Assembly (NCBI GenBank): GCA_965208125.1
Contig: OZ242320.1
Coordinates: 2,464,001 to 2,528,000, forward strand
Source of the DNA: Candidatus Latescibacterota bacterium
GTDB taxonomy: Bacteria > Latescibacterota > UBA2968
DNA length: 64,000 nt
Direction of reading: 5' to 3'
A program made the translations under genes and the position numbers. Within the stretch, counting starts at the first letter, position 1. The number at the start of each line of letters is the position of its first letter. The notes under the pieces were generated by a model, which was not told the DNA's origin, searched no databases, and worked only from the letters and a program-made list of their open reading frames with translations. Shown here in pieces: positions 2-12,289 of this stretch.

Positions 2-1219
2 GACGCCCAGACAGACGAAAGGTTAAATCGTTACCAAAGCGTGATAGACTACAATATTCGGTCTGTATTGTGTGTGCCTGTATTCCATCTTAATGAAGGT
101 GTGATGGGTGCGCTATATGTGGATCATCGCGGCATGGGCAACGCATTTTCTGAAGCAGATCAGACGTTTTTACAGGCATTTGCGAATTTGGTGGGGGTGG
201 CGCTGGTCAATGCGAAGATGTATGAACAATTGAAAGAGAGAGCACAATATTTGCAGCAAGAGGTCGAAAGGCGGTACCAGCTTGGCGATATGTTTGGACA
301 TAGTGATGCGATGCAGGCGATCTACCGGCTTATCGAACGCGCGGCAAAGAGTGATGTTCCCGTGCTTGTGCAGGGCGAAACAGGTACGGGTAAAGAATTG
401 GCAGCGCGTGCCATACACTACAATAGCACGCGCAAAGACCAGCGTTTTTTGTCACAAAATTGTGCCACACTATCACCAGAGTTGTTGCAGAGTGAGTTGT
501 TTGGGCACAAAAAAGGCGCGTTTACTGGCGCAAATGAAGATCACATTGGGATTTTTGAGGCTGCCAATGGCGGTACGGTTTTTCTCGATGAAATCGCCGA
601 TGCCCCACCGCAGTTGCAAAGGAGTTTGTTGCGGGTGTTGCAAGAAGGGGAGATTCGGCGCGTGGGGGAAACAGTGGATCACACAGTAGATGTCCGCATT
701 ATTGCAGCGACCAATCGAGATTTAAAAGAGGAAGTAGAGAACGGCTCTTTTCGCGAAGATTTGTATTACCGCTTGCATGTGATTCAGATCGATATGCCGC
801 CTTTGCGGGAATACCTCGAAGATGTGCCATTATTGGCTGAACATCTACTCATTCGTGCAAAAGAAGAGGCAAACAAGTCGGTTGGGGGACTGACAGTGGG
901 TGCAATCAGGGCGCTCACAAGTTACAACTGGCCTGGCAATGTGCGCGAGTTGGAGAATGAGATTCGGCGGGCGGTGGCATTGGCAGAAGAAGAGGGGGAT
1001 ATTACGCCCGATTTGTTTTCAGAATCCATTGGGCATACAGTGTCAGATATTCCTGTCGAATTCCAGGGGCGTTTACAAGACCATGTCCAGGAGTATGAGA
1101 GACGGTTGATTCGAGCCGCACTCGAGAAATGCGATGGCAATATTACGCATACTGCCAGAGAATTGGGGATGACGCGCGTTGGTTTGCATAAGAAGATCAA
1201 TCGTCTGGGATTGAGATAG
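2..1219 (+). CDS. Sigma54-dependent enhancer-binding activator (GAF + AAA+ + Fis-type HTH), 5'-truncated by the window edge
   Basis: Walker A GETGTGKE, intact GAFTGA, Walker B FLDEI, FREDLYYRL, WPGNVRELEN, C-terminal HTH (GNITHTARELGM); GAF tail SVLCVP..GALYVDH. Frame is open from position 2. Confidence 0.95.
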   Translation, partial: DAQTDERLNRYQSVIDYNIRSVLCVPVFHLNEGVMGALYVDHRGMGNAFSEADQTFLQAFANLVGVALVNAKMYEQLKERAQYLQQEVERRYQLGDMFGHSDAMQAIYRLIERAAKSDVPVLVQGETGTGKELAARAIHYNSTRKDQRFLSQNCATLSPELLQSELFGHKKGAFTGANEDHIGIFEAANGGTVFLDEIADAPPQLQRSLLRVLQEGEIRRVGETVDHTVDVRIIAATNRDLKEEVENGSFREDLYYRLHVIQIDMPPLREYLEDVPLLAEHLLIRAKEEANKSVGGLTVGAIRALTSYNWPGNVRELENEIRRAVALAEEEGDITPDLFSESIGHTVSDIPVEFQGRLQDHVQEYERRLIRAALEKCDGNITHTARELGMTRVGLHKKINRLGLR

Positions 1220-1230
1220 GTGTGAAACCA

Positions 1231-1349
1231 GTGTATCCTTATATATACAGTATGTCCTATTGTTTACATTATTAATATCTATATAAATCAATTAGTTATG
1301 AGTATTTTATTTTATAAACGTTTGTAAGTGTATCCTTTCAGATACACTT
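1231..1349. promoter_or_regulatory. Two putative enhancer (UAS) palindromes TGTAT-N8-ATACA with an IHF-like site between them
   Basis: GTGTATCCTT repeated at 1231 and 1328; perfect 9-bp inverted repeat AAGTGTATC-N6-GATACACTT at 1326-1349; AATCAATTAGTTA at 1286-1298 matches WATCAANNNNTTR. Confidence 0.6.
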
Positions 1350-1456
1350 GTATCTGAATGTCGCATTTACAACACACGTAATTCTTAAATTTTATTTCCT
1401 TGTTTTTTTAAGCACTTGAGCTTTTTCAAGTGCTTTTTTTTTGATAGAACGATTTG

Positions 1457-1472
1457 TGGCACGAATTTTGCA
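1457..1472 (+). promoter_or_regulatory. Sigma54 (RpoN) -24/-12 promoter
   Basis: TGGCAC-GAATT-TTGCA is an exact match to TGGCAC-N5-TTGCW; it lies 47 nt before the peptide ATG and just downstream of a bEBP gene. Confidence 0.88.
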
Positions 1473-1519
1473 ATATGAAGGGCAGAGATAGCATTTAAAT
1501 TCTCAATAAGGAGGATACC

Positions 1520-1702
1520 ATGGCAACGCCACGCAAGTTGAATTTGATCAATGGAACGATAGATACAGAGGGTGATATTCAAACACTTCGGTCCGCAGAT
1601 AGTCTCAAAATTGGGGGATGTCCAGCTGGCTGGCCATCTGTTCCTCCCCTGCCTTTTCCCAATGACGATGACGATAGGGACGATCTTGAGCGCCCGGAGT
1701 GA
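1520..1702 (+). CDS. Putative RiPP precursor peptide (60 aa), SCIFF-like leader, single-Cys core
   Basis: Strong RBS AAGGAGG 5 nt before ATG; first ORF after the sigma54 promoter; 28 nt upstream of the rSAM/SPASM gene; RKLNLING...DSLKIGGC leader. Confidence 0.78.
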   Translation: MATPRKLNLINGTIDTEGDIQTLRSADSLKIGGCPAGWPSVPPLPFPNDDDDRDDLERPE

Positions 1703-1730
1703 ATCATCTCTGTCCTGAGGATTACCCGAC

Positions 1731-3161
1731 ATGCTGTGCATTCAAAAATGCGACATGCATCTTTTTCAAACTGAAGAACACAAACAGCCTGTTGCCTATC
1801 AGGTTGAGACGGGTCTGTTTTTTGAATTGGATCCCCATTTCCAGGCAATTTTAGCGTGTTGTGAGGGCTTGTCGGCTTCACAGGTTGTCCAGAGGTTGAC
1901 CGATCAATACGAGGCAGAGGAAATTGCCGAGGCCATTGAGGAATTGGTACAGGTGGGTTTGATTTCAGATGGTGCATTACCCTTGGTGTCCCAGGTGCCG
2001 ACGACAGAGGGGATGGCAGCCTGTGGGGTATCGCAGACAGATCGTTTGCAGGTGTCCTTGCACGTTTCGCATACGTGCAATATCCAATGTGCGTATTGCT
2101 TTGCTCACGGTGGAGATTATGGCGGTAAGGCTATGCTGATGCAATCCGATGTTGCCGAGCAAGCCATACGCTGGATCGTCACCGAGGCTCAGGTGTTCGG
2201 ACGGTGCCAGATTGATTTCTTTGGCGGGGAGCCGCTCTTGAATTTTCCATTGATTCAGGAGCTTGTCCCATTTGCCAAATCCCTGGGCGCGCGATTGGGT
2301 GTGCAGGTTGGTTTTGGTATTGTGACCAATGGCACGTTGTTGACTGACGAGATGAAGCAGTTTTTGGTTGATGAAAAGTTTCAGATTAAGGTCAGCCTGG
2401 ATGGTGGGCGCAAAACACAGGACCGCATTCGCAAGTTTCACAATGGTTCTGGCACTTATGATGTTGTGGCAAAGAATGTACAGAAATTGACTGATGAGGT
2501 GCCTGAGCGCGTGTATTTGCAGGCTATTATGACAGCGTATGATATGGACGAGGATCAGATTGCCGATGCGTTGCGTTCTCTGGGTACTGATAACGCGCTC
2601 ATCGGTCCGGCTGTTGTTTCACCTGATGCGCCTTATGCTATTGGGGAAGAACACATACCCGTTTTGAAGCAACAAATTTACAAGCGCAGCCGGCGTGCGC
2701 TCAAAGCCATTTTAAGTGGTGAAGAAAGTGAAGAGTTTGATCCGCGGATTCAAAAACTTTTGACGCGCGCAAAATCCTGTCACGGGTGCTTGGGTGGCAA
2801 GCAGTATTTGGCGATTGCAGCGGATGGGTCGATTTATTTTTGCTCGAGTTTGGCCGATGCGCCCGAGTTTAAGATGGGTGATGTGTTTTCGGGTATTGAT
2901 CGCGAAAAGCAGCAGCATTTTGACGCGCAGTTCAATGTGAATAATCGTCCTGAGTGCAAGACGTGCTGGGCGCGCAATTTGTGTGGTGGCGGGTGTCTTT
3001 GGGAGGCGAGGACGACGACGGGTGACCCAATGTATCCAAACCCTGTTGCTTGTGAACAGACGCGCTATCGCTATGAACTGGCGATGGAGATGTGTATGGA
3101 GATAGCAGAGGAGGATGCGTCTTTGTTGCAGCGACGATATGATCTGGAAGTGGCTTCATAA
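1731..3161 (+). CDS. Radical SAM/SPASM peptide maturase with N-terminal RRE-like domain (CteB/QhpD-like)
   Basis: CNIQCAYC, FFGGEPLL, TNGTLL, VSLDG; SPASM Cys set C..GxIYFC..CKTCWARNLCGGGC..C; ~100-aa N-terminal extension (HLFQ..VAYQVETGLFFELD..AIEELVQVGLI). Confidence 0.9.
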   Translation: MLCIQKCDMHLFQTEEHKQPVAYQVETGLFFELDPHFQAILACCEGLSASQVVQRLTDQYEAEEIAEAIEELVQVGLISDGALPLVSQVPTTEGMAACGVSQTDRLQVSLHVSHTCNIQCAYCFAHGGDYGGKAMLMQSDVAEQAIRWIVTEAQVFGRCQIDFFGGEPLLNFPLIQELVPFAKSLGARLGVQVGFGIVTNGTLLTDEMKQFLVDEKFQIKVSLDGGRKTQDRIRKFHNGSGTYDVVAKNVQKLTDEVPERVYLQAIMTAYDMDEDQIADALRSLGTDNALIGPAVVSPDAPYAIGEEHIPVLKQQIYKRSRRALKAILSGEESEEFDPRIQKLLTRAKSCHGCLGGKQYLAIAADGSIYFCSSLADAPEFKMGDVFSGIDREKQQHFDAQFNVNNRPECKTCWARNLCGGGCLWEARTTTGDPMYPNPVACEQTRYRYELAMEMCMEIAEEDASLLQRRYDLEVAS

Positions 3162-3226
3162 ACCACTGGAGGAGCAGGATCAGAACAGGTCTCCTGGTAT
3201 ATTCCCTGACCCGGGACGCCTGTTTC

Positions 3227-3271
3227 AAGCATACAGGTGTGACGAATATCTATTGTCAGGCCTGTATGCTT
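3227..3271. repeat. Intergenic stem-loop between maturase and methyltransferase
   Basis: AAGCATACAGG (3227-3237) / CCTGTATGCTT (3261-3271) with inner TGAC/GTCA pairing; no U-tract. Confidence 0.55.
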
Positions 3272-3317
3272 AAAGCCGCCACGCGCATGCCAAAGTAATC
3301 CAATAGAGAAGTGAGAA

Positions 3318-4226
3318 ATGCATAAAATTTCAGACCTCAAAATACCGGATCGGCTTAATCTGAATGCAGGTTGGAGCATTGGTGAGACGGCGTTTGAGAG
3401 AATTAGAACCACGCTTCTTGAGATGTCCCCAGTAGAAAGAATTCTCGAATTTGGGAGTGGTCCGAGTTCTGTCCGGCTGGCTATGGCGTTTCCCGAAGCG
3501 CAGGTTTTGTCTGTGGAAGGTGATTGGCGGAATTTTGCAGAGACCACGAGTCTGATGCGATCATTCTGGGATCAACACAATCTATCGATCAAATATCGTC
3601 CGATTACTCTTGAATCTTATGGAGACGCGGAATTTTTGACTTATGAATATGGGATGTTCTGGGAGGAAGAGATAGATTGCGTGATTATTGATGGTCCACC
3701 TGTCTATACCTTGCGAGGTCGAGAAGCCTGTCTCTACCAGGTTTATGATCAGGTCAAGATTGGTGGTCTGGTCATCCTGGACGATTTCAGAAGGTCTTAT
3801 GAGAAGCAAATTGTCGAGAACTGGCTGTCCGTCTATCCCGGCAGTTTTACAGTGGAAATGATCCGCGAAGACCACCATCTGGCCGTGTTGCGTAAGATCA
3901 AATCTGTGACACCGTGTTGGGATGCGCCTTATAGGCTTTCGGATGTTCAGTCTGTCAGCGAAACGCTCTCCCGCATTACACAGGCATTATCGCAGGTTGA
4001 TGATGTGTATTTGAGAACGCTGGCCAAAGCGAATAATTGCTCTGAAACAGATCTGATTGGCCTGTTCAATACCATTCGCAACATCTATGGGGTGACGCCT
4101 GAGCGCATCCAGGAGTTCATGAGCGGAAATTCTATACTTTCACCAGACGTTCAAAAAAGAAAACAGAATGCCTGTTATATGACAATCGTCAACGCGTTTT
4201 TTCGAGACGCTCAGTTTTCACATTAA
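3318..4226 (+). CDS. Class I SAM-dependent methyltransferase (Methyltransf_24-like) with C-terminal extension
   Basis: ILEFGSGPSS, VLSVE, VIIDGPP, GGLVILDDF motifs. Confidence 0.8.
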   Translation: MHKISDLKIPDRLNLNAGWSIGETAFERIRTTLLEMSPVERILEFGSGPSSVRLAMAFPEAQVLSVEGDWRNFAETTSLMRSFWDQHNLSIKYRPITLESYGDAEFLTYEYGMFWEEEIDCVIIDGPPVYTLRGREACLYQVYDQVKIGGLVILDDFRRSYEKQIVENWLSVYPGSFTVEMIREDHHLAVLRKIKSVTPCWDAPYRLSDVQSVSETLSRITQALSQVDDVYLRTLAKANNCSETDLIGLFNTIRNIYGVTPERIQEFMSGNSILSPDVQKRKQNACYMTIVNAFFRDAQFSH

Positions 4227-4394
4227 AGAAAGTGAATACAAAATGAGGAAAAGTCCAACGGCTGCGGGATGTTTTTCTGGATTTTTCCAGAAAAATTAAG
4301 GATCGGTCCTCCCATCCCGCAGTCTATTTAATGACCGATAGCCGGTATAATATTGAGTAGCAGGTAAATAGAAAACTACATTTCAATTTGGAAC

Positions 4395-4425
4395 CCAACG
4401 GTCTCCACTAAACCGTTGGTTTTTT
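4395..4425 (+). terminator. Putative intrinsic terminator closing the RiPP operon
   Basis: CCAACGGT-9 nt-ACCGTTGG followed by T6. Confidence 0.55.
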
Positions 4426-4478
4426 CTGTTAGGGCTTTGCATTCAAAAGTTCAAGGTGTGAGCAAAAGGAGACCTAAA

Positions 4479-5873
4479 ATGAAGAGAATACTTGGCATAG
4501 CCATGGTCGTTCTCGTTCTCGTCTTTCTTGTGTACGGAAACTATTCCAGGATTGATCCGGCCGTTCCCGACCTCAAAGTTCGCGAACTCCCGCCTCTTAC
4601 GGTGCCGCCATCGACAATTACGATTCCATTCTCCTTTCCAATCCAAGCTATCGGAGATGCATTGGAACAAGAGATCCCGAGGACTCAGGACGGCACAGAG
4701 AGTTGGGTGGGGAGGATTCTCGGCATCAAAACAAGCATCTCAGTAGATTGGCGGGTTGAAAGGGATGGCATAAGCATCTCCGGAGGCGAAGATAAAATTA
4801 GGACCAGGACTAGATTGAGTGCCGAGGTGGAAGCAAGAAATGTGGAAATCGCAGACATTACAGGAAATCTCAGAGCGACTATGAGGCCGAAACTGAATTC
4901 GAATTGGCGCCTTAATCCTCAACTGACAACGAATATTAACTTGTCAACAGCCAATCTACTCAGATTCATTAGTGTACGAGGGTTACTTGAACCTGAACTC
5001 AACCAAAGACTTAGTAATATTAGCAGTGACTTTAATAATAAGTTAAGCCGCGACGATTTCATAGAGAAAGCCGTCAGACAACAGTGGCATGAGATTTGCC
5101 GTTCCTTTCCTATTAGCCCGGATTCAAGTATTTGGCTAGAGGTAAAGCCAGTAGCTGTTCGATCAGCACAGCCCATAGTTGATACCCAAAATGTCTACTT
5201 GCAGTTCAGTCTTGACGCGGAGACACAGATCGTCGAGACGCAGACCCAACCACAATGCACTTTCCCTGACAGTCTAATTATAGAAGACTCACAGCCCGGT
5301 TACTTCAAAATCGTTCTACCCGCTGCATTGGAGTACGATACCTTAGAAGCCTTTCTAAAGAAAAAATTTGCGGGCAAAACCGTTGATAAAGATGTTTCAG
5401 TGAGGATTAATGCTGTTAACATCCTTTCAGATGGCGAGGTGATTGTATTAGGTGTCAAGTTGACCTTGAAGGCTAATGGTTGGTTCGGACCTCGGGCTCA
5501 AGGAATAGTTTATCTTTCAGCTAAACCCCATCTTAATGTCGATAGACAAGAGATTATACTTACAAAGTTACAACTCGATATAGAATCTCGAAACGCACTT
5601 GTCACCATTTTTGGAGAAGCCGCAGAATCAGTACTATTGGTTGCTCTTGGCGACGAGATAGTATTTGACCTTAGCCCCAAATTGGAAGAGGCCCGAGACA
5701 GGGCGCAGCAAGCCCTGAATGCGATATCGACGGACGAACTTCTGGTTGAAGGGCAGTTGAGTGAGATCCGAATAACGAGTCTTGATGTGGGGACCGACAG
5801 ATTACGCCTTGTCACTACTGCTCAAGGAGGGGCTGTAGCTTCTGCAAAAAAAATTTCATGGAGTTCGAACTGA
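4479..5873 (+). CDS. DUF4403-like membrane-anchored protein
   Basis: AGGAG RBS before ATG 4479; N-terminal hydrophobic anchor; PSTITIPFSFP..LEQEIP start and repeated beta-rich halves typical of DUF4403. Confidence 0.65.
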   Translation: MKRILGIAMVVLVLVFLVYGNYSRIDPAVPDLKVRELPPLTVPPSTITIPFSFPIQAIGDALEQEIPRTQDGTESWVGRILGIKTSISVDWRVERDGISISGGEDKIRTRTRLSAEVEARNVEIADITGNLRATMRPKLNSNWRLNPQLTTNINLSTANLLRFISVRGLLEPELNQRLSNISSDFNNKLSRDDFIEKAVRQQWHEICRSFPISPDSSIWLEVKPVAVRSAQPIVDTQNVYLQFSLDAETQIVETQTQPQCTFPDSLIIEDSQPGYFKIVLPAALEYDTLEAFLKKKFAGKTVDKDVSVRINAVNILSDGEVIVLGVKLTLKANGWFGPRAQGIVYLSAKPHLNVDRQEIILTKLQLDIESRNALVTIFGEAAESVLLVALGDEIVFDLSPKLEEARDRAQQALNAISTDELLVEGQLSEIRITSLDVGTDRLRLVTTAQGGAVASAKKISWSSN

Positions 5874-5964
5874 TCGAAAGCCGGGATGACAACGCCGTTG
5901 CCGGAAAGGCTACTTCTAATGTGAAATAAATCAATAGTCTCATCACCGTTGGTTTGGACTTTAA

Positions 5965-6129
5965 GAAGCTGTCTTAAAATTATTTTGAACAGGCCTGACA
6001 CATTTACGCAAACTGTGGGTCGATAGCGGCTATCTCGGTGAAGACTTCAAGGAATGAGACGCAAAACGGAAAGCGCACGTATAAAATTGATACCGGCTCG
6101 CTTAATTACATGGGTTTTAAGACAGCTTC
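5965..6129. mobile_element. 165-bp MITE / internally deleted IS
   Basis: Perfect 15-bp terminal inverted repeats GAAGCTGTCTTAAAA (5965-5979) / TTTTAAGACAGCTTC (6115-6129), flanked by TAA direct repeats (5962-5964, 6130-6132); no transposase ORF. Confidence 0.75.
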
Positions 6130-6141
6130 TAAGGAGCGCAG

Positions 6142-7293
6142 ATGTCAAATATTGATCGCAGCACTACAAACAAGTCTGAGTCTCACCTACCACGACGTTT
6201 TATAATGGCTGTGGTTACCCTTTTCTTTGGTCAACTCGTCGGTGAGAACTCTGTAATTTTGGCCAAACTTTTCTACTTTTACTTTCATGGGCCTGATGAA
6301 TTAGAGCTATGGAAGGTCATGCAGGTCTCACTGGTGCTGCTGATGGTTTTTACTTCTTTAGCTATTCTGATAATTGTGCGTTTGGTAGAGGCAAATTCTG
6401 AACAAGTTGAGCAAGTCTTGCTTTTTGTATCATTAGCATTTATTACTGCGGGTTTCGCTATCATAGACCAATCTCTTCCATCAATGGACAAGGGTAGGCA
6501 GTTACCACTGTGGGAGACCTTATACTACTTCGGTTGGCCAATGATGCTGTGGTTTGTCATTCCTTATTTTTTATTAGATGGGTCGCGACTTGAGCGAGTC
6601 CAAAAGATCGTAACTTTTATTGCTATATCTTTTGTAGGCCTTGTTATATGTGGTAGTGTGGGTGGAGTTCTCTTTTTACTTGCTCCGACGATACTTGAAT
6701 ATACGAAATTAATGGAGGGTGCCGTTGGAGTCCTTGATGATCCCATAAAGTTCTGGCAAGCGAGTCCTCCTACTATCAACTCGATCTGTGCGTTGTTTGT
6801 AGTAGTGGCTTTTGCTCCCAAATGGTGGCGAAACCTTAAGCTACGAGTTTCATGGACGGTTTGGATCCTCATTTTCACTGGATTTGCGATCATTTACGCT
6901 GGGATGTTTGGTAGTTTTTTCTTTGCAGAACGTCATCATTTTAGTGACCAGAAGTCCATAGGACTGCAAATTCAATTGTTTAGCAAGTTTGGTTCATTTT
7001 CGCTCATCATAACTGTAGTATTCTTGTTAAGTCTTTGGCTGGTGCGTCACCAATCAAATTCGGATGCGGCTATCGGTTTCCCGTCAGGCAACCGCTTTTG
7101 GGTGTACTTGTCAATAGGGTTGGGGCTGGGATTCTCTCTGGTTCAGCTCTTTGAACTCCTTCCATATGGCTCATTTGTTGAGGCTGAGGCTAGACATGTG
7201 CTCGTGGTCCTGGTATTCCATGCCCTGAACGGAATATGTCTCGGTTTCTCGCTTCGATCCCTCAGATGTGTGATAAGGTATGTAATGCGGTGA
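6142..7293 (+). CDS. Hypothetical polytopic membrane protein
   Basis: 383-aa ORF with about 10 hydrophobic segments; AAGGAG RBS. Confidence 0.7.
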   Translation: MSNIDRSTTNKSESHLPRRFIMAVVTLFFGQLVGENSVILAKLFYFYFHGPDELELWKVMQVSLVLLMVFTSLAILIIVRLVEANSEQVEQVLLFVSLAFITAGFAIIDQSLPSMDKGRQLPLWETLYYFGWPMMLWFVIPYFLLDGSRLERVQKIVTFIAISFVGLVICGSVGGVLFLLAPTILEYTKLMEGAVGVLDDPIKFWQASPPTINSICALFVVVAFAPKWWRNLKLRVSWTVWILIFTGFAIIYAGMFGSFFFAERHHFSDQKSIGLQIQLFSKFGSFSLIITVVFLLSLWLVRHQSNSDAAIGFPSGNRFWVYLSIGLGLGFSLVQLFELLPYGSFVEAEARHVLVVLVFHALNGICLGFSLRSLRCVIRYVMR

Positions 7294-8871: not shown

Positions 8872-8972
8872 GAGTAGATCATCTGCCGAATCATCCCACA
8901 CCCTGTTTCACCCTAATTAAAAAAGGAACCCCCCTTTTCTGTTATCGACTAAAATGGGTCAAGTCCATAACT

Positions 8973-9003
8973 AAAAAACCACGTCCTTTGGGCGTGGTTT
9001 TTT
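8973..9003. terminator. Bidirectional intrinsic terminator (copy 1)
   Basis: AAAAAACCACGTCC-TTT-GGGCGTGGTTTTTT between convergent ORFs. Confidence 0.85.
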
Positions 9004-9033
9004 GGTTTTTACTGCTAATGTTTTCGACAGGGA

Positions 9034-9360
9034 TTAGAACCGCGATTGTTTGCTCTCCATGCTGGTATGCACATCGATCAGCACGGTTTTGCCATCGGCA
9101 TTTAGTCGCTGTGCTTCTTGTAATGCAGGGCGCATTTCGCCCACTTTTTTGACGGTGATGCCCACAGTGCCCATGCCTTCGGCAATTTGGGCGTAGTTGC
9201 CCTGCATATTGGAAACGCCGTAGCGTTCGCGCGCCGTGGGAAATCCGCCGGGGTATGTCGCCATGTCCCCGTTGTTCAGAATCACGGTTGTAATAGGGAT
9301 GCCTGCGCGGGCAGATGTTTCGATGTCCAGGCCGGACATGCCGAAGGCGCCATCGCCCAT
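9034..9360 (-). pseudogene. C-terminal 108-aa fragment of the ThDP-dependent enzyme
   Basis: Nearly identical to the last 108 aa of 11962..13593; starts at MGDGAFGM; upstream sequence is unrelated. Confidence 0.88.
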
Positions 9361-9455: not shown

Positions 9456-11864
9456 ATGCTGCGTAATTATCTGGTTGTAGCGGTTCGGAATCTGTTGAAT
9501 AATAAAATCTTGTCAATGATCAACGTTTTTGGACTAGGAGCAAGTCTGTCGATCTGCCTGCTGATCATCTTGTTTGTGTCATACCAAAAAACGTCTGATG
9601 CATGGCACAAGAAGGCAGATCGTATCTATCTCACCATCTGCGACTACCGTTCGCCCACCCAGCCTGATCGTGTTCGCTCCTACGCAACGACACCTGCGAG
9701 TCTTGCTTCGCTTCTTCAAGATATCTGCCCAGATGTAGAAGTGACGACACGGTTACGCAGATTCCGTGGTTCCATGGGCTTTCCCGGCAGTCAAAGTCAA
9801 ATTAAAGTGTCTGGCCTTTATGCCGAGCCGTCGTTTTTCGAGGTATTCGATTTCGCTCTTGTGGAGGGGAATCCCGCTACCGCGCTTTCCGAACCCAATT
9901 CCATCGTGCTTTCGCAGAACCAGTCGGTTGCATTATTTGGAGATTCCAGCCCACTGAATCAGACTGTGATGATCGGACAGACGCCATACAAGGTAACGGG
10001 CGTCCTGGCGGATCCGTTAGGGGCCAGCTATGTACGGTTTCAGATCTTGGTGTCGTTTGAGACCTTGAAATTTGCGCCACCCCGCGGCATTCCTCAGTGG
10101 AGCGATGGCATGAATGACACATACACATTTTTGGTCTTACGAGAAGGTACCCACCCAACGGTCCTGGAAAGATACTTCACACAGATCATTCAAGACCACT
10201 ACCAGCCTGGTACAGATCGACAGATAGAGAGGGCAAGTGCCCAATTACTGACCGACCTCAACCTGAGCGTCATGAGAGTTAACCAACTTAGTTGGATGGT
10301 TCCTGGCATGGCTGTTTATTTTGTTAGTGTTCTGGCCGCTATAATACTGATAGGGGCGTGCTACAATTATACCAACTTAATTGTGGCCAGAGCAATGGCC
10401 AGAGCCCACGAGGTGGCAATTCGGAAAGTCGTAGGTGCATATCGCAGACAGATCATTGGCCAAATATTGGTGGAGTCGATTCTAACAGTATTGCTGGCGA
10501 CGTTTTTTGCCATGTGGCTGTTGGTATGGTTAATTCCTGCTTTCAACGAGATGTTCTTTACTTCATTTTTTCCCTTGGCCCGCATCAAGCTCGACGTTCT
10601 CAAAGATCTGACGGTCTATCTCACTGTCCTTGGCTTCATCGTAGGCGTAGGCATTCTTGCGGGCACCTACCCCGCACTTCATCTTTCCCGATTCGTCCCA
10701 GTCTTGATCTTGAAGGGAGGAAGTTTTACAAAGGATCGAGCCAAGTCATTCAATCGGATGTTTGTGGTGGGGCAGTTTGGCATGTCGTTATTCTTCGTCC
10801 TCTCGACCCTGTTCGTGTACCAGCAGTTCCGATATATGGTATCGTCCGACTATGGATTTGATCATGAAAATATAGTGAACGTACGGCTTCAGGGAGTGGG
10901 CTACGACGTGTTCCGGCAGGCGATGGAGCAATCGCCCTCAGTGGAGCTCATTTCTGGTTCCTCACAGATTCTGATGCAGGGTGAGCGATCAGAACGTTCG
11001 GTGACGATTGGGAGAGGTGATCCTAAGACAGTTTCAGTTTCCGAATTAATAGTGGACTACAATTTTGTTTCGAACCTGAAACTCAAGCTACTTGCAGGCC
11101 GTTACTTCAATCGCCCATCGGATATTCACAGGAGTGTGCTGCTCAATAGAACCGCTACTCGGTTGCTAGGTCTGGAAAACGAAGAGCAAGCGATAGGTCA
11201 AATCTTGAACGTGTCAGGGAAGAACACGAAACCTACCATTGTGGGGATTCTGGAAGACTTTCAGACATATGGCATAGGCATGGATATTGATCCTGTCATA
11301 CTGCTCTGTGAGCCAGCGCGTATAAATTGGGCAAACGTGCGCGTGTTACCCGGCCATATGCCTGAGGCGGTTGCGCACCTCGAACAGGTCTGGGCTGAGT
11401 TAGGAAGTCCTTGGAAAGTGGAGTACGATCTGTTTACGACGCAAATCCAAAAAGGAATGCTCGCTGGAGTCTATTCCGATGTTTTGCATATCATTGCTCT
11501 GATTAGCGCTTTCGGGGTGCTTTTGGCCTTACTTGGCATGTTGGGAATAGCTATGCATGTCATGGAAATGCAGGTCAAGGCAGTTGCAATACGCAAGGTT
11601 CTGGGAGCGAGTTCTTGGCAGATCGCTGTGCTCTTGTCAAAGGATTTTCTCTTGATGCTTGTTGTGGCGGTTCTACTTGCAGCTCCTGCTGCGTGGTTTG
11701 CAAACCACCTCTGGTTAAACCAGTTCCCCCTCCGAACCACAATGAGTCCGTGGCTGTTCGGTGGTGTTGTTGCCGTGATGGCAGCAGTTGTTCTCACAGT
11801 AGTTGGGTCGCAGACGCTTCGTGCAGCGAATTCCGACCCAGTAAAGGCACTCAGACGTTTATAG
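9456..11864 (+). CDS. MacB/FtsX-type duplicated ABC permease (orphan, no ATPase nearby)
   Basis: MLRNYLVVAVRNL start, NYTNL..R.HEVAIRKVVGA and AIRKVLGAS repeats, AANSDPVKALR end; 802 aa. Confidence 0.92.
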   Translation: MLRNYLVVAVRNLLNNKILSMINVFGLGASLSICLLIILFVSYQKTSDAWHKKADRIYLTICDYRSPTQPDRVRSYATTPASLASLLQDICPDVEVTTRLRRFRGSMGFPGSQSQIKVSGLYAEPSFFEVFDFALVEGNPATALSEPNSIVLSQNQSVALFGDSSPLNQTVMIGQTPYKVTGVLADPLGASYVRFQILVSFETLKFAPPRGIPQWSDGMNDTYTFLVLREGTHPTVLERYFTQIIQDHYQPGTDRQIERASAQLLTDLNLSVMRVNQLSWMVPGMAVYFVSVLAAIILIGACYNYTNLIVARAMARAHEVAIRKVVGAYRRQIIGQILVESILTVLLATFFAMWLLVWLIPAFNEMFFTSFFPLARIKLDVLKDLTVYLTVLGFIVGVGILAGTYPALHLSRFVPVLILKGGSFTKDRAKSFNRMFVVGQFGMSLFFVLSTLFVYQQFRYMVSSDYGFDHENIVNVRLQGVGYDVFRQAMEQSPSVELISGSSQILMQGERSERSVTIGRGDPKTVSVSELIVDYNFVSNLKLKLLAGRYFNRPSDIHRSVLLNRTATRLLGLENEEQAIGQILNVSGKNTKPTIVGILEDFQTYGIGMDIDPVILLCEPARINWANVRVLPGHMPEAVAHLEQVWAELGSPWKVEYDLFTTQIQKGMLAGVYSDVLHIIALISAFGVLLALLGMLGIAMHVMEMQVKAVAIRKVLGASSWQIAVLLSKDFLLMLVVAVLLAAPAAWFANHLWLNQFPLRTTMSPWLFGGVVAVMAAVVLTVVGSQTLRAANSDPVKALRRL

Positions 11865-11876
11865 AGCTGACGAATA

Positions 11877-12289
11877 GACTAAAACGGATCAAGTTCATAA
11901 GTAAAAAACCACGTCCTTTGGGCGTGGTTTTTTGGTTTATGTCTGGTGTTTTCGATGGGGATCAAAACCGCGATTGTTTGCTCTCCATGCTGGTATGCAC
12001 ATCGATCAACACGGTTTTGCCATCGGCATTAAGTCGCTGCGCTTCTTGCAATGCGGGGCGCATTTCGCCCACTTTTTTGACGGTGATGCCCACAGCGCCC
12101 ATGCCTTCGGCTATTTGGGCGTAGTTGCCCTGCATATTGGAGACGCCATAGCGTTCGCGCGCCGTGGGAAAGCCACCGGGATAGGTCGCCATGCCCCCGT
12201 TGTTTAGAAGGACGGTTGTGATGGGAATGCCTGCGCGGGCAGATGTTTCGATGTCCAGGCCGGACATGCCAAAGGCGCCATCTCCCATC
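11877..12289. repeat. Direct repeat copy 2 (terminator plus 3' end of the intact ThDP enzyme gene)
   Basis: Matches 8947-9361. Confidence 0.92.
11903..11933. terminator. Bidirectional intrinsic terminator (copy 2)
   Basis: Same hairpin as 8973-9003, between the convergent permease and ThDP enzyme genes. Confidence 0.85.

Follow-up and report, generated by a model that had tools for sequence, protein, structure and literature searches.

A predicted single-cysteine, ranthipeptide-like precursor family with a hypervariable six-residue loop in uncultured Latescibacterota

Closest described systems and the Latescibacterota locus

In the SCIFF systems (CteA/CteB and Tte1186a/Tte1186), the core of the locus consists of a precursor and a maturase in which a RiPP (peptide that is made ribosomally and modified post-translationally) recognition element (RRE) is joined to radical S-adenosylmethionine (SAM) and SPASM domains, and the CteA leader has been solved bound on a strand of the CteB RRE, as presented in the available part of a review (PMC8326336). 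A locus with the same core lies near the start of a 64,000-nucleotide stretch of DNA from an uncultured Candidatus Latescibacterota bacterium (contig OZ242320.1; the whole stretch that was analysed is called here the window). It comprises a 60-residue open reading frame (ORF) at 1520..1702 on the + strand, whose sole Cys is Cys34, followed by a gene for an enzyme of the same domain composition. We consider it probable, with real room for other readings, that this ORF encodes the precursor of a ribosomally made, enzyme-modified peptide whose leader would dock on the enzyme, whose Cys34 would close one thioether macrocycle, and whose expression would be controlled by sigma-54 and an upstream activator. 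Judged by its enzyme, the system would work like the ranthipeptides, the bond type being predicted. As solved for CteA (same part of PMC8326336), the window leader is modelled on the RRE strand. Compared with SCIFF, the family to which the window precursor belongs has in addition a loop that is hypervariable, a tail of Asp, putative control by sigma-54 and several copies in a genome.

Cys-to-Asp/Glu thioethers are formed in PapA/PapB and QhpC/QhpD, systems with homologous enzymes; the acceptors of PapB and QhpD are Asp side-chain carbons, and freyrasin carries six Cys-to-Asp bridges (available part of PMC8326336). The window precursor resembles them in offering a Cys donor and Asp-rich acceptor candidates but, unlike freyrasin, it has one Cys, followed by 13 residues before the first Asp/Asn. 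QhpC is an amine dehydrogenase subunit, whereas none of the six scanned window genes (2..7293) matched a dehydrogenase family. A single thioether from a single donor Cys, as proposed here, is described for the ranthipeptide pair NxxcA/NxxcB in the available part of the same review; that pair is streptococcal and tied to quorum-sensing operons, according to the accessible sections of PMC11851443, and its acceptor differs in being an Asn three residues before the Cys.

Three-residue cyclophanes of the WprA/WprB type form another point of comparison, as the window copy contains the aromatic-Pro-x triads W-P-S and F-P-N. However, the first auxiliary cluster is missing from WprB, which depends on a separate WprC (accessible sections of PMC11851443), and the triad Trp is not conserved in the present family. 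The window maturase was set apart from WprB by description and from YhhB and FxsB by model scores. Prochlorosins and cyanobactins are peptide libraries with hypervariable cores, in which conserved leader or recognition parts flank the free core; unlike them, each precursor of the window family keeps its own near-identical enzyme, its own regulator and a fixed six-residue window of variation. In sponge-associated Latescibacterota genomes, ranthipeptide clusters called by antiSMASH have been tallied and their function called unknown (PMC12993501). They are probably the same loci as those described here; the accessible text of that paper gives a tally by cluster type, without precursor, loop variability or regulator. 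In full-text searches, run without subscription journals and supplements, no published description of the precursor family, of its loop or of the link to a sigma-54 regulator was found.

The precursor family and its hypervariable loop

1508-1514, + strand: ribosome-binding site AAGGAGG, 5 nucleotides ahead of the precursor ATG
1520..1702, + strand: precursor ORF, ATG start, 60 amino acids, sequence MATPRKLNLINGTIDTEGDIQTLRSADSLKIGGCPAGWPSVPPLPFPNDDDDRDDLERPE
1520..1618, + strand: leader, residues 1-33, of which residues 5-14 (1532-1561) are the predicted RRE contact
1619..1621, + strand: Cys34, invariant by conservation, the presumed sulfur donor
1622..1639, + strand: hypervariable six-residue loop, PAGWPS in the window copy (78 distinct loops in 120 sequences)
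1640..1660, + strand: Pro-rich segment V-P-P-L-P-F-P, conserved
1661..1699, + strand: acidic tail, NDDDDRDDLERPE in the window copy, family consensus D-D-D-D-W-D-D-F-D
1731..3161, + strand: maturase, 476 amino acids, with N-terminal PqqD-like RRE, radical SAM and SPASM domains (Pfam)

The ORF reads identically to the peptide string of the preliminary description, including its 14-residue spacer and single Cys. Among 44 loci gathered, 43 of them non-duplicate, a pattern confined to the leader picked up a small ORF directly 5' of the maturase in 37; the six misses were one copy at a contig end, four loci of a distant type and the one locus with a 43%-identity maturase. A ribosome-binding-site-like hexamer lies at most 20 nucleotides from the ATG in 37/37 precursor loci. 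The stop codon of the precursor is separated from the maturase start by 28 nucleotides in the window and by 21-29 nucleotides in 35/37 loci, a count that leaves out five distant-type loci and whose exceptions are L028 (about 300 nucleotides) and L012 (contig end). In L028 (1535-1696), L046 and L062, two of which are the same place, the precursor ends within or just after the Asp tract (...DDDDDDF or ...DDDDWDDF), and about 300 extra nucleotides holding a 52-residue ORF stand ahead of the maturase.

A profile built from the 37 precursor orthologues and paralogues matched 260 clusters among 5.8 billion proteins, and every source name given was 'hypothetical protein'. Searched against 1.84 billion representatives, the same profile gave 14 matches, all of them the family itself or frameshifted copies of it save one repetitive 1159-residue protein, and yielded no link to another peptide family. 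The peptide matched no Pfam or NCBIfam family at E≤1, the Nif11 and NHLP leader models included. Against PDB chains the profile gave chance-level matches alone, to unrelated proteins (best E 0.031), with CteA(1-21) not among them at E≤10, and in the protein atlas the best score was 0.76, which is under the useful range.

In alignment A1, comprising 37 sequences selected by the leader pattern alone, the leader residues K6, L7, L9, N11 and G12 are invariant, partly by construction of the pick-up pattern. The invariant core residues are C34, V41, P42, F46, P47 and D50, and T3, D15, E17, G18, I20, S28, P45, D51, D52, D54 and F56 are at least 90% conserved. Motifs were also counted over the best 120 of the 260 database clusters, taken unfiltered (counts over 120 refer to these throughout). 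All 120 hold L-x-[LV]-[IV]-N-G in the leader and C-x6-[VI]-P-x-x-[PS]-F-P in the core; Cys34 is thus found in 37/37 of the leader-picked set and in 120/120 of these best matches, and the loop is six residues long in 120/120, in 78 distinct versions. At least three of the five residues after F-P are acidic in 118/120. Of the features pointed out in the preliminary description, the single Cys is invariant and the acidic tail conserved. Trp occurs within the loop in 37/120 (31%), and the loop is preceded by GGC in 40/120.

Column statistics were drawn from 148 distinct sequences out of a pool of 170, ten lacking the leader/core pattern having been dropped; the 100% conservation of the Cys, P42, F46 and P47 in this set is by construction. 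The entropy is highest at loop positions 1, 4, 5 and 6, reaching 2.98 bits, with Trp in 31% at position 4 and Pro in 16% at position 5. Ahead of the Cys stands G in 52%, A in 15%, S in 11% and H in 10%. Downstream, F-P-[D/N/A] is conserved, with Ala as the third residue in 6/148, and each of the positions two, three and four after F-P carries Asp in 95-97%. Seven sequences (P0124, P0126, P0127, P0128, P0130, P0131 and P0132) have a leader without the core in frame, or a tail without the leader in frame, and represent pseudogenes or errors of assembly; P0124 is devoid of Cys.

Selection was assessed by codon analysis of 27 complete cassettes (351 pairs, 13 of them independent), omega being the ratio of the non-synonymous rate (dN) to the synonymous one. 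For the loop, omega was 0.88 over all 351 pairs and 0.59 over the 13 independent pairs, with a dN of 0.84. The maturase gave an omega of 0.11 with a dN of 0.049, and the leader, the V-P-x-x-P-F-P segment and the tail gave 0.37, 0.12 and 0.26, respectively. At the Cys34 codon, synonymous differences summed to 126 over the 351 pairs and non-synonymous ones to 0. The leader, Pro-rich segment and tail are under purifying selection in the frame of the ORF. Positive selection on the loop was considered and is not demonstrated, as both omega values stay below 1; they indicate strongly relaxed or diversifying constraint, a point against the reading favoured here. Since the loop omega is high yet not above 1, hypervariability alone is claimed.

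Taken together, the family of 260 clusters, the conserved core pattern, the purifying selection and the presence of a ribosome-binding site and promoter in 37/37 loci establish that the ORF at 1520..1702 is a real gene and far more than a chance ORF. On the evidence of its alignments, the precursor is built of a conserved leader, a fixed Cys, a freely varying six-residue window, a rigid Pro-rich spacer and an Asp-rich follower.

Maturase, modelled leader docking and the predicted cross-link

The PqqD-like domain of the maturase scores 24.2 bits (cut-off 23.4). The best NCBIfam models for the enzyme are those of four thioether-forming families, the SCIFF maturase (3.1e-77), QhpD (1.1e-75), the nif11-type enzyme (3.2e-75) and PapB (4.7e-68), and among solved structures CteB (5wgg) is its nearest relative (E 6.7e-58, residues 24-452). 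The earlier proposal that the precursor serves the adjacent radical SAM/SPASM enzyme agrees well with this CteB-like character. The identity to a true SCIFF maturase is 31%, and on the SCIFF maturase model TIGR03974 the enzyme reaches 260.3 bits (cut-off 425), a Caldisericota control maturase reaching 483.3 bits. The radical SAM motif C116-x3-C120-x2-C123 and a seven-Cys SPASM pattern are invariant among the maturases. Two further Cys, C159 (in R-C-Q-I-D-F-F-G-G-E-P) and C350, are also invariant in both maturase subfamilies; C350 lies three residues ahead of the first SPASM Cys, and its equivalent in CteB and the Caldisericota SCIFF maturase lies seven ahead. By its best hits, the maturase belongs to the SCIFF/QhpD/PapB clade, with motifs for three Fe-S clusters, and to no curated subfamily within it.

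The maturase was modelled in complex with the precursor, SAM and three 4Fe-4S clusters. The model score was 0.85, compared with 0.01 for the best of three controls, which passes a mark attained by 116/157 solved complexes and 2/215 mismatched pairs; the runs share at least 37% of their contacts, and the predicted local distance difference test (pLDDT) of the partner is at least 47. Residues 5-14, 18 and 20-27 of the leader alone are confidently placed. The modelled leader touches maturase residues 21, 28-34, 37, 68 and 71-75, which belong to the RRE, and also 341-346 and 452-475; leader residues 5-14 rest on 28-34 and 68-75. The model supports the L-x-L-I-N-G stretch as a recognition motif for the RRE.

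The model bears on the possibility that the ORF encodes an unmodified small acidic protein, acting for example on the regulator, while the radical SAM enzyme has another substrate. In favour of such a protein, the modification of the precursor is deduced from sequence, and no conserved protease or exporter was seen among the loci searched with six window proteins. Against it stand the leader-binding RRE in the enzyme and the specific pass of the model, the constant spacing of 21-29 nucleotides to the maturase in 35/37 loci, and the arrangement of conserved flanks around a variable loop, which is typical of precursors. We regard an unmodified protein as very improbable.

The preliminary description had recognized in this leader a SCIFF-like sequence that retains both LxxIN and DSLKxGGC. 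The L-x-L-I-N-G segment is near-invariant, L-x-[LV]-[IV]-N-G being present in 120/120, and is modelled on the RRE strand, whereas DSLK-GG-C is found in a minority subgroup. At the DSLK positions of the window copy the family consensus is N-S-F-E (N 76%/D 12%, E 84%/K 12%), GGC is limited to 40/120, and the DSLK..GGC likeness does not extend beyond the window copy and a handful of near relatives. The SCIFF model TIGR03973 (criterion 50 bits) gave no match to the peptide at E≤1 and none genome-wide at E≤10; as a positive control, it gave a Caldisericota peptide, whose enzyme passes the SCIFF maturase cut-off, 54.9 bits. Alignment of the precursor profile with 19 true SCIFF peptides (hhalign) returned a probability of 0.4% over 4 columns, and in local alignment the leader scored no better than shuffles (z -0.87; 156/200 shuffles reach the observed score). 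This comparison covers the Caldisericota SCIFFs and the NCBIfam model; CteA itself lies outside it. The leader is, at the level of sequence, not detectably SCIFF-like. The two outcomes set beforehand as refuting the earlier idea, a leader that does not rise above shuffles and a CPAGW core that is not conserved (loop Trp in 37/120), were both observed. Unlike SCIFF, with its six Cys, the family has one Cys (105/120) or two (15/120); neither a conserved Thr/Ser after the loop (present in 26/148) nor any hidden Markov model or profile similarity of the peptides was found. Because three defining SCIFF features were tested and found lacking, the precursor family is, by its sequences, not SCIFF.

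For the product, a Cys-derived thioether is the best reading, given the enzyme clade, the invariant Cys and the fit between RRE and leader; we hold it to be fairly probable, most of the remainder falling to other cross-links. In the mechanism that we propose, the leader stretch K-L-x-L-I-N-G would bind, as a strand, to the N-terminal RRE of the neighbouring maturase, as the model suggests. By SAM-derived radical chemistry, the enzyme would then join the Cys34 sulfur to a carbon in the downstream conserved segment, as its homologues lead one to expect, and the thioether would close one macrocycle displaying the six-residue hypervariable loop. The acceptor would most likely be an Asp of the D-tract after P-F-P, at its beta-carbon as in PapB and QhpD; the presence of Asp in 95-97% at the second to fourth positions after F-P speaks for this choice. 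The main alternative would be a ring closed at V41/P42 or F46.

Several points weigh against this reading. The thioether chemistry of the precursor is a prediction from enzyme homology, and the maturase scores under every curated cut-off (260 against 425 bits for SCIFF, 255 against 453 for QhpD, 230 against 340 for PapB), so that the bond type is not transferable from those families. No single Asp lies at a constant distance from the Cys across all sequences. The complex model does not place the core with confidence and is silent on the acceptor, and its pass may owe something to the existing structure of CteB with CteA(1-21). Finally, in the neighbouring bacterial family, 3/13 genomes of one genus hold maturase homologues of 49-54% identity (and one further genome a homologue of 43%); the precursors of the 49-54% enzymes, a distant subfamily, read C-x-W-P-x-F-P-x-L-P-P-P and lack the Asp tract, and if the chemistry is shared with this distant subfamily, the acceptor is not Asp. 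A Thr following L-P-P-P was considered as the acceptor there and rejected as a rule, being within three residues in 8/9 distinct sequences and lacking in P0140.

The same observations lend some weight to a sactipeptide-type bond, in which the Cys34 sulfur would be linked to the alpha-carbon of V41/P42, giving a ring of the six variable residues, or of F46. The distance from the Cys to V-P is fixed (loop of six in 120/120), V41, P42 and F46 are invariant, and Phe and Pro are common to both subfamilies, the distant one included, which is without an Asp tract. Cys-to-Phe alpha-carbon links are known from subtilosin A. Yet the nearest enzyme families all form non-alpha thioethers, and sactisynthase matches of the maturase are far lower (RumMC model 4e-31; SkfB in PDB 1.2e-4); moreover, the role of the Pro-rich segment may lie in recognition or shape and not in accepting the bond. 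We therefore consider this type of bond unlikely, although deserving of serious attention.

A cyclophane of the triceptide or WprB type, in which an aromatic ring would be joined to a side-chain carbon at F46-P47-D/N48 while Cys34 merely anchors on an auxiliary cluster, appears improbable to us. F-P-[DNA] is conserved, and distant-subfamily precursors have two aromatic-Pro-x triads, W-P-x and F-P-x, the former being W-P-R in 5/9 distinct precursors; for W-P-R there is a published precedent, a radical SAM enzyme that links Trp-C5 to Arg-C-gamma (accessible sections of PMC11851443). The cyclophane synthase models, however, are some 50 orders of magnitude poorer as matches to the maturase than those of the thioether clade (YhhB 5.2e-25, FxsB 1.5e-20, against 3e-77) and remain far under their own cut-offs. 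According to the same sections of PMC11851443, WprB differs from the fused RRE-SPASM maturase in its twitch domain and its separate helper protein. The third residue of the triad is Ala in 6/148, and the W-P-S of the window is not conserved (Trp 31%, Pro 16%).

The preliminary description had also offered a Cys-Trp link across C-P-A-G-W. Trp occupies loop position 4 in the window copy and occurs in 37/120 loops, and in the distant subfamily Trp stands two residues after the Cys in 9/9 distinct sequences. In 83/120, by contrast, the loop has no Trp although the enzymes are about 90% identical, which excludes Cys-Trp as the common chemistry of the family and leaves the link scarcely credible. 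The broader proposal, a single thioether from the Cys to core or tail, survives; the loop Trp counts speak against its Cys-Trp version, and against a cross-link at W-P-S, as the chemistry of the family. The suggested leader cleavage after GG finds no support, as the motif is not conserved and no recurring peptidase or exporter was seen. No C39 peptidase-ABC exporter was found among the six scanned window genes (2..7293), and the other loci, searched with the six window proteins alone, revealed no recurring protease or exporter; of these six, only the regulator, precursor, maturase and methyltransferase-like protein recur there.

In the distant subfamily, cassettes L036 (3542-5023 and 5077-6060) and L038 (4298-5689 and 5607-6911) carry a second radical SAM gene after the first, 24-26% identical to it, followed in L036 by a group-1 glycosyltransferase gene and in L038 by a 434-residue ORF; the products of this subfamily may carry further modifications. 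The 43%-identity maturase homologue (L041:2001-3409, the same place as L083) is split into the overlapping frames 2001-2432 and 2420-3409, whether through a frameshift or through an error of sequencing. It is preceded by a small ORF, possibly a third type of precursor, in which L-R-R-I-N, a single Cys and a part rich in aromatic residues and Pro occur.

Predicted sigma-54 control, distribution and possible biological meaning

2..1219, + strand: regulator gene, 3' part (whole gene L105:3938-7219, 1093 amino acids)
1410..1442, + strand: terminator-like hairpin with T-run closing the regulator gene (sequence reading)
1458..1472, + strand: sigma-54-type promoter GGCACG-N4-TTGCA, with -24 GG and -12 GC (pattern match)

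The cassette, a conserved arrangement of regulator, sigma-54 promoter, precursor and radical SAM/SPASM maturase, keeps the gene order regulator-precursor-maturase wherever flanking sequence covers it. The promoter sequence GGCACG-N4-TTGCA has its sole match in the 64-kb window at this place (0.09 expected). Its core, GGCAC-N5-TTGC, is present in 37/37 loci, 57-79 nucleotides ahead of the ATG; it replaced a stricter pattern with T before GG, which was found in 19/37. A GG-N10-GC element occurs in 6/6 distant-subfamily loci, and a hairpin 3' arm with at least six T in 37/37 upstream regions. The genome encodes rpoN (429.6 bits, cut-off 277).

By Pfam, the window regulator comprises a Ser/Thr protein kinase, AAA_16 (STAND-type NTPase), a truncated GAF, the sigma-54 activator AAA+ domain and HTH_8. 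Its paralogue (L106:533-5443, 1636 amino acids) comprises protein kinase, AAA_16, TPR, GAF, sigma-54 AAA+ and HTH_8 domains; relative to it, the window protein lacks about 530 residues in frame (paralogue 681-1210), corresponding to TPR repeats and the start of GAF, and this shortened regulator may be deregulated or defective. A homologue of the activator lies 5' of the precursor in 39/43 loci, wherever the flank is available; none is present in L012 and L041, and in L024 the last 39 residues alone fit. Its identity is 81-95% within the genus and 57-58% in the distant subfamily. Over the last approximately 880 aligned columns, from TPR to the C-terminus, no 60-column block reaches the omega of the loop (highest 0.57, gap-rich), the scan stopping at the 3-kb flank, beyond which the kinase and STAND parts lie. 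As the cassette passes on as a single unit, a correlation between loop and regulator input domains would mirror common ancestry. With promoter and gene order conserved, transcription of precursor and maturase would depend on sigma-54 and on the upstream activator, whose activating role we infer.

Cassettes are duplicated within genomes. In that of the window (5.75 Mb, one contig), a second cassette encodes a peptide of 61% and a maturase of 92% identity. Close maturase homologues (87-93% identity, as also between paralogues) were found in 15/20 other genomes of the genus searched, 13 of these 15 holding 2-3 full-length cassette copies and two fragmented assemblies pieces alone; genomes G001, G009, G010, G016 and G018 gave remote radical SAM matches or none in the maturase search. 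The next-nearest relatives of the maturase, at 29-32% identity, belong to true SCIFF loci of Caldisericota.

Contigs of family members were found in four RNA-library runs from two studies. One of 117 nucleotides spans 1565-1681, its differences encoding another loop variant, and two (1618 and 1141 nucleotides) reach from leader to maturase, with 76 unlike letters in place of the core, as expected of a paralogue. These contigs could be carried-over DNA and cannot prove transcription, its level or its ends, a caution that joins the points raised above. Two runs from the same study have contigs that end 44-47 nucleotides before 1532; such ends would agree with a sigma-54 start at about 1483 and are not used as evidence. 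Public DNA runs held at most 0.24 of the sampled words, and no claim on habitat or source is drawn from them.

Downstream of the maturase, the following gene is probably an optional accessory.

3318..4226, + strand: probable class I SAM-dependent methyltransferase, with weak matches throughout

These matches are to Methyltransf_24 (E 0.002, under the cut-off), to the O-methyltransferase 2gpy (E 5e-4) and, in the protein atlas, to clusters bearing Methyltransf_24 (score 0.96). In 32 loci, the position 3' of the maturase holds an intact probable methyltransferase in 11, a remnant in 4, a second sigma-54 activator in 11 and neither in 4, two being too short. The window continues with a DUF4403 protein with an N-terminal membrane anchor (4416..5873) and a multi-pass membrane protein of no family (6142..7293), neither of which had a match in the other loci within about 1.5-3 kb after the maturase. 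Further on, a direct repeat of about 365 nucleotides (8944-9307 and 11874-12235; 90-92% identical, spacing 2928-2930), holding the 3' end of a thiamine-pyrophosphate enzyme gene and a terminator-like hairpin, flanks a MacB/FtsX-type permease gene (9456..11864). An insertion or duplication appears to have occurred here, leaving behind a gene fragment of 108 amino acids at 9034..9360.

Between duplicated cassettes, the enzyme remains about 90% identical while the loop diverges. As the enzyme stays constant while the loop changes, the most likely product is a diversified peptide used in signalling or competition, and not a cofactor. More speculatively, and rather unlikely in so specific a form, each cassette would be a private peptide-signal module, in which the loop is the specificity determinant sensed by its own sigma-54 activator, directly or through the kinase, STAND, TPR or GAF parts, and duplicates would give an uncultured symbiont orthogonal channels that activate themselves and serve in quorum sensing, host signalling or the recognition of kin. 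Because the bacteria are uncultured, heterologous expression is the only route to the product; it requires two genes, both small.

Should the product be confirmed, the family would be ranthipeptide-like and of a new design: one donor Cys, a six-residue window of fixed length in which evolution is almost free, a rigid spacer rich in Pro and a follower of poly-Asp. Such a family would offer a natural display scaffold, with near-identical enzymes tolerating at least 78 loops, of interest for peptide engineering. The system would also tie the maturation of a peptide by a radical SAM enzyme to sigma-54 control through a kinase-STAND-TPR-GAF activator of very large size.

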